Virus record (IMG/VR): IMGVR_UViG_2693429748_000020
Length of the DNA: 4,691 nucleotides
Source: a virus
Lineage: Duplodnaviria > Heunggongvirae > Uroviricota > Caudoviricetes
Direction: 5' to 3' (one strand)
In this document: positions 2,158-4,691 of the stretch, in pieces
Layout of the letters: each line of letters starts with the position of its first letter
Numbering within the stretch: position 1 is the stretch's first letter
Program-made: the position numbers and the translations under genes
The notes under the pieces: generated by a model
Databases searched by the model: none
What the model was told of the DNA's origin: nothing
What the model saw: the letters and a program-made list of their open reading frames with translations, nothing else

Positions 2158-2460
2158 TTAACGCGTATTTTTCAGCGACTCCTGTGCAAAATACGCTGTT
2201 GCTTTTTTTAATATATCTCGCTCAAGGCGAGCTTCATTTAACGCCTTACGCAGTTGCAGAATTTCAGATTCCAGTTCAGCCACCGTGCGGGAACCAGGAG
2301 TACCGAGCCCTTTTCTGGCGGCGGTAACCCATTGTCCTAAAGTGCCTTCAGGAAGAGATAATCGGGAAGCGCCTTCACTGATCGAAAGTTGATTTTCAAG
2401 AACCGTTCTGACAGCTTCGGCTTTGAACTCTTTAGAGTAACGTTGGGTTTTTCTGCTCAT
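2158..2460 (-). CDS. IS3-family OrfA (HTH plus leucine-zipper transposase subunit, 100 aa)
   Basis: Protein MSRKTQRYSKEFKAEAVRTVLENQLSISEGASRLSLPEGTLGQWV...LESEILQLRKALNEARLERDILKKATAYFA shows the typical IS3-family OrfA HTH and heptad leucine repeat. Confidence 0.9.
   Translation of the reverse strand: MSRKTQRYSKEFKAEAVRTVLENQLSISEGASRLSLPEGTLGQWVTAARKGLGTPGSRTVAELESEILQLRKALNEARLERDILKKATAYFAQESLKNTR
2203..2209 (-). other. Putative programmed -1 ribosomal frameshift site (A AAA AAA G) linking orfA to orfB
   Basis: A run of seven A on the minus strand lies in the orfA codons TTA-AAA-AAA-GCA. A -1 shift here reads into the orfB frame (..KKSNSVFCTGVAEKYALIEQWRQQFPIEAMCQVFGVS..). This is the standard IS3-family arrangement. 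Confidence 0.5.
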
Positions 2461-2536
2461 TATTAGCTCCTTCTGATGCCATTCTATTTCAGGAAGGAGT
2501 GTCCGTTAAACTCAGGCTACCTCAGTCTCGTTCATT

Positions 2537-2692
2537 TTACTCACCTGAATGTCTTCCCAACCAACGACGTGCGCCAGCTTCGGTTTTAAACGTTTTGCTT
2601 TTGGTATACGTCATGGCGGTGAATGTGCCGTCCTGGTTGGGGAACACGCCGTACACCAGAGATTCGTTGTTGCCAAGATCGATAGTATTCAT
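2537..2692 (-). CDS. ydfA: ydfA-like small prophage protein, copy B (51 aa from the internal ATG; the ORF track extends to a GTG at 2746)
   Basis: The ATG at 2692..2690 is preceded by a G-rich RBS-like stretch (AGGGGAAATGGGG). Product MNTIDLGNNESLVYGVFPNQDGTFTAMTYTKSKTFKTEAGARRWLGRHSGE. It lies directly downstream of the DicA-like repressor in the same orientation, as ydfA does relative to dicA in E. coli K-12 Qin (recalled). Confidence 0.55.
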   Translation of the reverse strand: MNTIDLGNNESLVYGVFPNQDGTFTAMTYTKSKTFKTEAGARRWLGRHSGE

Positions 2693-2768
2693 GTTGACCC
2701 CATTTCCCCTTAACGCCGGGGTAGCGGAACTGTTTGCTGAGAACACCGTGCGGTGTCTTGATGAATGA

Positions 2769-2798
2769 AATTTAGAATAACCTAAGGTGGGCGGTCAA
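2769..2798 (-). promoter_or_regulatory. Candidate PL-like promoter of cassette B reading toward ydfA (-35 TTGACC, 18-bp spacer, -10 TAAATT)
   Basis: Minus strand: TTGACC (revcomp of 2793-2798) and TAAATT (revcomp of 2769-2774). The -10 is weak. An operator-like TTAG-N6-CTAA site overlaps it. Confidence 0.3.
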
Positions 2799-2821
2799 GG
2801 TTTTTGTGTAGAAAAACCTAA
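2772..2821. promoter_or_regulatory. OL-B: operator-like TTAG-N6-CTAA sites downstream of the DicA-like repressor
   Basis: TTAGaataacCTAA at 2772-2785 is a perfect 4-6-4 core. gTAGaaaaacCTAA at 2808-2821 has one mismatch. Same core and spacer as the three sites between dicA-like and dicC-like. Confidence 0.35.
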
Positions 2822-2894
2822 GTTTTTTGATGTAAAAAACACAAGTGTTTGAAAGTTTGTGCTTTTTATTACAGGGTGTGGAGAAAAAAGGGGA

Positions 2895-3302
2895 TTATTT
2901 GTTTGCGCTTCTTTTGCGAGCTTTGAGTAGTTCTTCAAAAAGTTTGTTGAAATTTTCAACTCGAGCACGCATCTCTGACAACAGGGCCTTTTGCTCTGAC
3001 TCAGGCAGTGCGTCGAACAGTTGAAGTAACTCTTTTTGATCTTCTGTCAGAATGGCTGGCTGATTATCCGGGATCGGTTCGCCTGGTTGTTTATCTTCAT
3101 CCCCAAAAAGAAGCCAAGTCGGTGAGCACTGAAGCGCTTGGCTCAGTGCGAATAATCTTTTCCCCGCCGGCTGTGTTTCATCTCTTTCCCATTGAGAAAT
3201 TGTTACGTGAGCCACTTTGACCAGCTTACCTAATGCGGCCTGAGACAGTTTTAATTTTTTACGCCTATGTAAGAGGCGAGCACCGAAGGTTTCGTTTTTC
3301 AT
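2895..3302 (-). CDS. dicA: DicA-like prophage repressor (XRE-HTH, 135 aa, no S24 peptidase domain)
   Basis: Strong recalled similarity to E. coli Qin DicA across the C-terminal two-thirds (LFALS..LQCSPTWLLFGDEDKQP...LLQLFDALPESEQ...EMRARVENFNKLFEELLKARKR). The N-terminal HTH is diverged. Divergent from a DicC-like gene. Confidence 0.9.
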   Translation of the reverse strand: MKNETFGARLLHRRKKLKLSQAALGKLVKVAHVTISQWERDETQPAGKRLFALSQALQCSPTWLLFGDEDKQPGEPIPDNQPAILTEDQKELLQLFDALPESEQKALLSEMRARVENFNKLFEELLKARKRSANK

Positions 3303-3368
3303 ATTAGGGAATTCTAATTTTTCTTGACTTAGGTTTCTCTACGATCTAGTTTCCTTAGGAAAATCTAA
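3303..3368. promoter_or_regulatory. OR-B: three evenly spaced operator-like sites (TTAG-N6-CTAA) between dicA-like and dicC-like
   Basis: ATTAGggaattCTAAT at 3303-3318; TTAGgtttctCTAc at 3329-3342 (one mismatch); TCCTTAGgaaaatCTAAGGA at 3352-3371 (perfect 7-6-7, core 3355-3368). Centre-to-centre spacing is 25-26 bp, as for lambdoid OR1-OR3. Confidence 0.5.
3324..3352 (+). promoter_or_regulatory. Candidate dicC-like (Cro) promoter (-35 TTGACT, 17-bp spacer, weak -10 TAGTTT)
   Basis: TTGACT at 3324-3329 and TAGTTT at 3347-3352, overlapped by the middle and right operator-like sites. RBS AAGGAG sits 7 nt before the ATG at 3379. Confidence 0.35.
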
Positions 3369-3378
3369 GGAGCTCGAT

Positions 3379-3606
3379 ATGTTGAAAATTGATGCTATAG
3401 CGTTTTTTGGCAGCAAAACAAAGCTTGCCAATGCCGCAGGAGTTAGGCTGGCAAGCATTGCTGCATGGGGGGAACTGGTTCCTGAAGGTCGCGCGATGCG
3501 CCTGCAAGAGGCATCTGGCGGGGAACTTCAGTACGACCCCAAAGTTTATGACGAATATCGTAAGGCAAAACGACCTTGGAAGGTGATTCATGAAAATCAG
3601 GCATGA
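3379..3606 (+). CDS. dicC: DicC-like Cro-type regulator (75 aa)
   Basis: Strong RBS. Divergent from the DicA-like repressor. Product has an HTH-like segment (SKTKLANAAGVRLASIAAW). Resemblance to E. coli DicC is from recall. The 3' end overlaps the ydaT-like start by 17 nt. Confidence 0.75.
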   Translation: MLKIDAIAFFGSKTKLANAAGVRLASIAAWGELVPEGRAMRLQEASGGELQYDPKVYDEYRKAKRPWKVIHENQA

Positions 3607-4012
3607 GCACATCGAATCAGTGTTGTTAGCCCTGGCAGCCGAAAAAGGGCAGGCGTGGGTCGCTAACGCAATTACTGAAGAATATCTGCGGCAGGGGGGC
3701 GGCGAATTGTCTCTGGTACCAGGCAAGGACTGGAACAATCAGCAGAATATCTATCACCGTTGGTTGAAAGGTGAAACGAAAGCGCAAAGGGAAAAAATTC
3801 AGAAACTGATCCCTGCGGTTCTGGCAATTCTTCCGCGCGAGCTGCGTCACCGACTCTGCATCTTCGATACCCTGGAACGCCGTGCATTACTGGCGGCGCA
3901 GGAAGCGTTGAGTACGGCAATTGATGCGCATGATGATGCTGTCCAGGCCGTTTACCGGAAAGCACATTTCAGCGGTGGTGGGTCGCCCGGCGATTCTGTC
4001 GTAGTGCATTGA
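3590..4012 (+). CDS. ydaT: YdaT-like protein (CII functional analog of Rac/CP-933P-type prophages), intact copy, 140 aa
   Basis: 140-codon ORF with RBS GGAAGGTGA, immediately downstream of the cro-like gene. Length and position match YdaT (recalled). Its first 88 codons are duplicated at 1194-1462. Confidence 0.75.
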   Translation: MKIRHEHIESVLLALAAEKGQAWVANAITEEYLRQGGGELSLVPGKDWNNQQNIYHRWLKGETKAQREKIQKLIPAVLAILPRELRHRLCIFDTLERRALLAAQEALSTAIDAHDDAVQAVYRKAHFSGGGSPGDSVVVH

Positions 4013-4056
4013 TTGAAATTAATCGTGCCGGATTGTTTTGTTCGGTATCAGTTAAA

Positions 4057-4077
4057 TGTAACGCTGCGAGCGTTACA
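4057..4077. repeat. Palindrome 1 of 3: tGTAACGCT-gcg-AGCGTTACa (perfect 9-3-9), 13 bp upstream of the replication gene start
   Basis: Perfect dyad read directly from the sequence. It abuts the RBS AGGTGA (4078-4083) of the gene starting at 4090. Confidence 0.6.
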
Positions 4078-4089
4078 AGGTGAAAACAA

Positions 4090-4431
4090 ATGGCTTCAAA
4101 CTGGATAAAGCTCGAGGTTATTACGCCGGATAAGCCGGAAATATTCAGGCTTGCTGAGATTCTGAATATTGATCCAGATGCCGCATTAGGGAAGGTTATT
4201 CGCTTCTGGGCATGGGCGGATCAACAAATGATAGACGGTAATGCAGATTGTAACGCTCGCGGCGTTACAAAAAGTGCAATAGATCGCATCACTTTTATGT
4301 CTGGTTTTGCTGATGCGTTAATTCAGGTTGGATGGCTGGTCGAAAATGACGGTGGGCTTTCTCTACCTAACTTTGAACGTCATAACGGAAAAAGCTCTAA
4401 AAAAAACGGGCGGTTACAAACGAGCGAGTAA
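4090..4431 (+). CDS. Replication initiator, N-terminal domain (phage replisome-organizer-like); frame ends prematurely at 4431
   Basis: RBS AGGTGA 7 nt upstream. The N-terminus MASNWIKLEVITPDKPEIFRLAEIL...FWAWADQQMIDG resembles the N-terminal domain of phage replisome organizer / O-like proteins (recalled). The gene position after the CII analog fits a lambdoid layout. Confidence 0.65.
   Translation: MASNWIKLEVITPDKPEIFRLAEILNIDPDAALGKVIRFWAWADQQMIDGNADCNARGVTKSAIDRITFMSGFADALIQVGWLVENDGGLSLPNFERHNGKSSKKNGRLQTSE
4249..4269. repeat. Palindrome 2 of 3: tGTAACGCT-cgc-gGCGTTACa (one inner mismatch), inside the replication gene
   Basis: Same 8-bp arms as 4057-4077 and 4459-4477. Lies in the coding sequence (codons D-C-N-A-R-G-V-T-K). 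Confidence 0.55.
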
Positions 4432-4458
4432 CAAAAATACGCGAACTGAAACGAAAAG

Positions 4459-4477
4459 GTAACGCTGCCAGCGTTAC
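4459..4477. repeat. Palindrome 3 of 3: GTAACGCT-gcc-AGCGTTAC (perfect 8-3-8), with an extra half-site AGCGTTAC at 4493-4500
   Basis: Read directly. The lone half-site repeats the right arm 23 bp downstream. The site lies just 3' of the 4431 stop, in the only frame that stays open. Confidence 0.55.
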
Positions 4478-4502
4478 ACAAACGGATCAAAAAGCGTTAC
4501 CA

Positions 4503-4538
4503 GAGGAAGAGGAAGAGGAAGAGGAAGAGGAAGAGGAA
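4503..4538 (+). repeat. (GAGGAA)6 perfect tandem hexanucleotide repeat encoding a 12-residue poly-Glu tract
   Basis: Six perfect GAGGAA units read directly from the sequence. They are in frame with the open linker frame of the replication gene. Confidence 0.9.
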
Positions 4539-4691
4539 GATCTAAATACTGATCTCCCCCTCGCCAAAAACGAGCGTCTAAAAAATTCGAGCCGGAGGCT
4601 ATTGAGCTGCCCGATTGGTTGCCGGAAACACTCTGGCATGAGTGGGTCCGGTTCAGACAGGCATTGCGAAAACCGATTCGAACGGAGCAGG

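Follow-up and report, generated by a model that had tools for sequence, protein, structure and literature searches.

Two derived frameshift lesions most likely inactivate the replication initiator gene of a Rac-like lambdoid prophage

The coding sequence that starts at position 4090 of the window (the whole stretch of 4,691 nucleotides that was analyzed) is that of the replication initiator in a Rac-like lambdoid prophage, a protein that corresponds to lambda O and takes the position of ydaU. With a probability that we put at about nine in ten, it is a genuine pseudogene fixed in its lineage and broken by two derived mutations, a gain of two nucleotides in an A-run and a 10-bp deletion between short direct repeats.

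Reading frames of the initiator gene

Examination of the open reading frame (ORF) list and the translations placed three pieces of one protein in three different frames of the plus strand. The 5' fragment (4090 to 4431), which matches PHROG 2509, begins at the ATG at 4090, ends at the TAA stop at 4429 to 4431 and encodes 113 amino acids, with the native N-terminal domain in residues 1 to 105 followed by an eight-residue out-of-frame tail (NGRLQTSE). Up to the A-run this ORF differs from the intact alleles by one substitution in the base-level comparison and is otherwise identical. The second frame (4092+3k) contains a TAA at 4398 to 4400 and has no further stop between 4401 and the window end; its open part reads KKRAVTNERVTKIRELKRKGNAASVTQTDQKALP, then twelve glutamates, then DLNTDLP. 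Comparison of this translation with the intact protein identified the native middle segment at 4407 to 4561, which encodes RAVTNERVTKIRELKRKGNAASVTQTDQKALP-E12-DLNTDLP, basic in its first part and leading into an acidic linker. The third frame (4091+3k) contains a TGA at 4550 to 4552, is open from 4553 and encodes ..PPRQKRASKKFEPEAIELPDWLPETLWHEWVRFRQALRKPIRTEQ, with the complete translation from 4553 reading SPPRQKRASKKFEPEAIELPDWLPETLWHEWVRFRQALRKPIRTEQ. On the basis of this translation and of matches to the C-terminal parts of PHROG 6451 and PHROG 678, the start of a DnaT-like C-terminal domain was located in the third frame at 4556 to 4691, from where it continues past the window end. The homopolymer runs of this region are A8 at 4399 to 4406, C5 at 4556 to 4560 and A6 at 4580 to 4585.

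The three segments are colinear, and in the same order, with the single continuous 266-amino-acid ORF of intact homologues, so the frame pattern is not a product of chance. Lesions that disrupt the frame relative to intact orthologues, with homology on both sides of each break, are the hallmark of a pseudogene and were found here. An earlier note, made from the letters of this stretch, had described the stop at 4431, the frames open from 4401 and from 4553 and the homopolymer runs, and all of these hold on re-reading, as does its arithmetic that one added base at each of two sites would give a single ORF.

Nature of the two lesions

The lesions were defined by multiple DNA alignment together with a base-by-base comparison to intact alleles, and run lengths were compared in 13 loci. 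Alignment to intact homologues, which the earlier note had proposed, located the shifts at the A-run (4399 to 4406) and at a deletion junction (4555 to 4561), and the comparison of homopolymer lengths among related genomes that it had also proposed returned A6 in intact alleles against A8 in loci of the window type. The alignment, the indel list and the run lengths define the first lesion (4399 to 4406, plus strand) as a 2-nt insertion (AA) after reference position 309, which shifts the frame by -1. The second, defined by the alignment and the indel list, is a 10-bp deletion (TCCCCCTAAA) at reference position 458, which shifts the frame by a further -1 and is marked by a single surviving copy of TCCCCCT at 4555 to 4561 (plus strand) that contains the C5 run. 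The intact allele reads GATC-TCCCCCTAAA-TCCCCCT-CGCC, and the lost 10 bp correspond to one copy of the 7-bp direct repeat and its spacer. Judged from this sequence context, the loss of 10 bp between 7-bp TCCCCCT repeats is the signature of slipped mispairing. The A6 run at 4580 to 4585 is unchanged in all alleles.

Two 1-nt deletions had been suggested for this gene. There are indeed two breaks of -1 each, with the first in the A8 run, but neither is the loss of a single base: the first is a gain of two nucleotides, and the second, which had been assigned to a 1-nt loss in the C5 or the A6 run, is the deletion between repeats. The simpler arithmetic had worked because +2 and -10 both move the frame by -1.

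Over the full gene in eight related loci, the +2 and -10 changes are the sole indels that alter the frame. About 197 nt of the gene remain past the window end in these loci, with no further indels and three or four substitutions. Relative to the closest intact allele, four substitutions were counted in the part of the gene inside the window and seven over the full gene in the related loci. This scarcity of substitutions fits a recent inactivation and would also fit continued constraint.

A further length difference lies in the poly-Glu linker, where Tandem Repeats Finder identified 6.5 copies of an AGAGGA hexamer at 4502 to 4540 (plus strand). The window carries one extra, in-frame AGAGGA unit compared to the closest intact allele, and this region ranges from -6 to +18 nt in related loci relative to the reference allele. 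The copy number runs from about 4 to 8 units, always in frame, in Shigella and E. coli loci that are nearly identical otherwise, and its change is a harmless polymorphism. The hexamer is also a possible strain-typing repeat.

An alternative is that the frame changes are used rather than suffered, with slippage on A8 (either -1 ribosomal slippage on A_AAA_AAC or stuttering of RNA polymerase) and a second -1 shift on A_AAA_AAT at 4580 to 4586 providing a low, regulated amount of full-length initiator. Both shifts are in the -1 direction that such recoding requires, heptamers of the X_XXY_YYZ type are in register at 4401 to 4407 (frame 1) and at 4580 to 4586 (frame 3), and runs of eight or nine A or T permit transcriptional slippage. 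However, the homologues have A6 and a single ORF, which makes the arrangement in two frames a derived feature and not a conserved one. It is at 4556, the deletion junction, that the sequence returns to the native frame, not at 4580; a shift at 4580 would exchange eight native residues (PPRQKRAS) for seven out-of-frame ones (LAKNERL). The RNA fold of 4399 to 4485 gave a z-score of -0.99, the only stable hairpin being a palindrome 52 nt downstream of the A-run, and two low-efficiency shifts in series would leave almost no product. Genes with programmed frameshifting or slippage, such as dnaX, the IS3 transposases and Shigella mxiE, have a conserved two-frame slippery site and a nearby RNA structure, neither of which was found here. 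Programmed recoding was therefore rejected as the main explanation, the layout not being conserved and no stimulatory structure lying near the site, and we consider it very unlikely. The first lesion on its own might nevertheless be leaky, as A8 could support some transcriptional or -1 ribosomal slippage with A_AAA_AAC in register.

Distribution of the lesions among related genomes

Another alternative to be weighed, also raised in the earlier note, is that the lesions are homopolymer sequencing or assembly errors and that the real gene is intact, with A6 and TCCCCCTAAATCCCCCT. The first lesion does sit in a homopolymer, a classic site of error; homopolymer errors, however, usually involve one nucleotide and not two, and the second lesion, the loss of 10 bp, does not concern homopolymer length. 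The exact 113-amino-acid truncated product was found in 236 blocks of the assembly collection, on about 159 contigs, and the named members of its 90%-identity cluster are mostly from Shigella sonnei (for example SS53G_2911 of strain 53G). Ten loci (L004 to L013) from different projects, including both short-contig drafts and multi-megabase assemblies, were read. A8 was present in all ten independent assemblies and the 10-bp deletion in eight of them as well: L004 and L005 (GCA_900448845.1 / GCA_900449095.1) have A8 only, and L006 to L013 have both lesions.

The lesions were absent from complete E. coli genomes. None of the 132 complete E. coli RefSeq genomes that matched a query over the A-run has A8; the best identity was 97.5%, with 79 bases aligned to the 81 bases of the query, which corresponds to A6. 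Similarly, the 10-bp-deleted form was found in none of the 578 complete E. coli RefSeq genomes that matched a query of 4505 to 4620, all of which were below 95% identity and, among the matches listed, spanned 10 bases more than the query. All intact alleles, including a phage allele with 91.7% identity, have A6 and the undeleted form. Because the lesions recur across assemblies and are absent from the matching complete E. coli genomes, sequencing error is excluded for practical purposes, with a likelihood that we regard as close to nil, and both lesions are derived.

The related loci also suggest an order of events. L006, L007 and L013 carry a 1-nt deletion at a site corresponding to window position 3628 in ydaT, which shortens the called YdaT to 101 amino acids. 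This deletion is absent from L004 and from the window, where ydaT (3590 to 4012, 140 amino acids) is intact, so the window does not come from the exact lineages of L006, L007 and L013. Over 2522 to 4691, L004 differs from the window by 10 substitutions and L006, L007 and L013 by three or four; over 2235 to 4691, none of the fetched loci is identical to the window, the best being L007 at 99.8%. By these comparisons the genome of the window is very close to assemblies of the S. sonnei type and identical to none of those fetched. The simplest history would be a nested decay in which A6 became A8, the 10-bp deletion followed and the ydaT frameshift arose in one sub-lineage, with the AGAGGA copy number drifting throughout. 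The nested lesions, together with the AGAGGA repeat, are possible lineage markers for the decay of this cryptic prophage.

Intact homologues and family assignment

In a megablast search with 4090 to 4691, 679 of 5,426 complete RefSeq genomes of E. coli had a match over 80% or more of the query, 96.7% being the highest identity; no identical copy was found among the 5,426. The whole window was not covered to 80% or more by any record. The gene is also present in four phage records at 91 to 92% identity, three of which annotate it as DNA replication protein O, with the fourth (phage Rac) naming it ydaU. As an intact single ORF it measures 801 nt in E. coli OkiPb01713 (from bovine faeces) and in the O55:H7 strain DEC5E, and 789 nt in phage vB_EcoS-666R9, where it is annotated as DNA replication protein O. 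In these three examples ydaT immediately precedes it, and ydaV, which encodes a DnaC-like ATPase, begins 7 nt beyond its end. The gene order in related loci is repressor, cro-like gene, ydaT, initiator and ydaV, and the product of the gene 3' of the intact initiator is a 248-amino-acid ATPase of the IstB_IS21 and Bac_DnaA families, annotated as DnaC-like or ydaV. The related loci confirmed the position expected within a replication module, with the immunity genes on the upstream side and the helicase loader immediately downstream; for the window the loader falls past its end.

The intact 266-amino-acid protein matched PHROG 2509 (replication initiation protein) over residues 1 to 266 against profile positions 1 to 277 (E 2e-91), which bears out the earlier reading of the gene as a replication initiator homologue, and the 113-amino-acid piece from the window matched positions 1 to 102 of the 277 (E 1e-58). 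On the basis of this full-length similarity, the protein is assigned to a family of lambdoid or Rac-like replication initiators, the name itself resting on annotation. In all related PHROG families the N-terminal domain sits inside profiles of 277 to 312 positions, and with an intact ORF of 266 amino acids this contradicts the possibility, entertained in the earlier note, that homologues naturally end near 4431. Neither the intact protein nor the window fragments reached the cut-off of any family in Pfam or NCBIfam, and only PHROGs and the PDB sequences were informative; in particular, no Pfam match to DUF1376 appeared at E values up to 0.1 for either, and a Pfam match of the intact homologue to TFIIA was below threshold and was rejected as spurious.

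The window copy shares 91.7 to 96.7% DNA identity over 4090 to 4691 with the PHROG 2509 initiators, as well as their gene order and three palindromes described below. It differs from them in that they are single intact ORFs of 262 to 266 amino acids, whereas it carries the +2 and -10 nt lesions and is spread over three frames. In some E. coli genomes PGAP names the PHROG 2509 gene "phage replication initiator YdaU family protein." The YdaU of the E. coli K-12 Rac prophage, a member of the DUF1376 family, occupies the equivalent prophage position and has a related C-terminal domain. Its N-terminal domain, however, is unrelated to that of this initiator at the sequence level, and K-12 ydaU DNA aligned to the window at 85% identity over 4631 to 4691 only. 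A literature search on ydaU and the Rac prophage returned only papers that call the ydaUVW operon uncharacterized.

A DnaT-like C-terminal domain

A search of PDB sequences aligned residues 174 to 266 of the intact homologue (L001:3520-3798) with residues 92 to 179 of DnaT. The matches to the DnaT C-terminal domain (2ru8_A, E 2.4e-4; 9zbt_D, E 7.8e-4) include the terminal motif VNTVS.PDS.IPPGFRG, and the window segment that begins ELPDWLPETLWHEW is the start of this DnaT-like domain. E. coli DnaT (primosomal protein 1, involved in replication restart; 2RU8, 9ZBT) has the C-terminal domain alone in common with the initiator. The protein was rejected as a DnaT orthologue, since it scored 16.6 bits against the NCBIfam DnaT equivalog NF002770, whose cut-off is 201, and the homology is limited to the C-terminal domain. 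The C-terminal homology suggests that the initiator would enter the DnaB-loading pathway as DnaT does. An N-terminal domain of its own type, an acidic linker and a DnaT-like C-terminal domain offer a mechanistic pointer for a poorly characterized initiator family; this arrangement is not new in kind, domain mosaicism being typical of lambdoid initiators.

Candidate origin palindromes and the truncated product

The 19-bp palindrome GTAACGC-N5-GCGTTAC occurs in three perfect copies, against a chance expectation of none. The first (4058 to 4076) lies just upstream of the start codon, the second (4250 to 4268) inside the coding sequence of the N-terminal domain and the third (4459 to 4477) inside that of the linker, where it is followed by a half-site (GCGTTAC) at 4495 to 4501. 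The positions of the three palindromes are kept in all 13 related loci, and no others occur in those stretches of 6 to 12 kb. The palindromes are candidate initiator-binding sites or origin elements, although they lie about 200 bp apart and the iterons of lambda are clustered.

These sites bear on the possibility that the 113-amino-acid N-terminal domain has been kept as a stand-alone DNA-binding protein that acts on GTAACGC-N5-GCGTTAC and hinders the replication of phages with the same origin. The truncated ORF retains the native start and the whole N-terminal domain, the three conserved palindromes surround it and its sequence is identical across many assemblies. S. sonnei, however, has a very recent common ancestry, and identity among its assemblies is expected and uninformative on selection. 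In addition, every related PHROG family holds this domain within a profile of 277 to 312 positions, and the neighborhood is decaying, with IS insertions and the ydaT frameshift. We consider retention of the domain for such a function improbable. In a related scenario, to which we give an equally slender chance, the A8 allele would be leaky and would mainly supply a stand-alone N-terminal domain that binds the palindromes and excludes incoming Rac-like phages of the same origin at the level of replication; if true, this would explain the occurrence of the A8 allele both in L004 and L005 and in Shigella.

Proposed course and consequences of inactivation

The preferred explanation remains a pseudogene formed by two successive mutations. 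The intact protein is about 266 amino acids long, with an N-terminal domain of about 105 residues, a basic and poly-Glu linker and the DnaT-related C-terminal domain. Homopolymer slippage would have converted A6 to A8 (+2 nt), and slipped mispairing between the two TCCCCCT repeats would have removed the 10 bp. Translation from the native start would then end at 4431, after the 105 native residues and the eight-residue nonsense tail, leaving the DnaT-like domain in another frame and without a start codon. By analogy with the function of lambda O, the N-terminal domain most likely recognizes origin sites, possibly the palindromes, and the C-terminal domain most likely recruits the host helicase and the YdaV loader. 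The initiator should be non-functional: with origin recognition and helicase recruitment uncoupled, the prophage should fail to initiate its own replication, and we infer that it has lost replication competence, one of the two alternatives offered in the earlier note. With translation ending early, some 370 nt or more before ydaV, polarity may also lower the expression of that gene.

Decay of this sort is ordinary for a prophage and already familiar from Shigella, whose genomes have undergone reduction accompanied by IS expansion. Frameshift pseudogenes of Shigella cryptic prophages likewise carry small indels in homopolymers and between short direct repeats, have IS600 nearby and accumulate lesions stepwise along lineages, and the window locus has nothing that distinguishes it from them, being a typical example. 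Several deposited S. sonnei records name the product a 113-amino-acid hypothetical or bacteriophage protein; the correct annotation would be one frameshifted phage-initiator pseudogene.

Surrounding prophage region

The window covers an immunity and replication region that has been rearranged and is riddled with IS elements, which supports the earlier description of the locus as cryptic and rearranged, given its tandem immunity modules and an IS3-family insertion. The left module is composed of a DUF1391 fragment, a 139-amino-acid HTH repressor on the minus strand (439-858), an 80-amino-acid HTH protein (955-1197) and a copy of ydaT (1194-1463). An IS600-like element of the IS3 family (about 1458-2530), called IS600 by PGAP in a matching genome, interrupts this copy after codon 89. 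A look-up of the resulting 89-amino-acid product returned only proteins truncated by the ends of contigs, in contexts unrelated to this one. The right module contains a DUF1391 gene (2537-2746) and a 135-amino-acid repressor (2895-3302), both on the minus strand, a P22-Cro-like gene (3379-3606) and the intact ydaT (3590-4012), followed by the broken initiator. In E. coli DEC5E an immunity region equal to the left module is linked to an intact initiator. Two different Rac-like immunity regions are thus found in tandem, joined at the IS3-family element.

Disruption of ydaT is not confined to the window type of locus. In E. coli OkiPb01713 (L001:1188-2923) the initiator is intact, but an independent insertion of an IS3-family element, at a site other than that in the window, has split ydaT. 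The gene seems prone to repeated disruption, fitting its annotation as a toxin.
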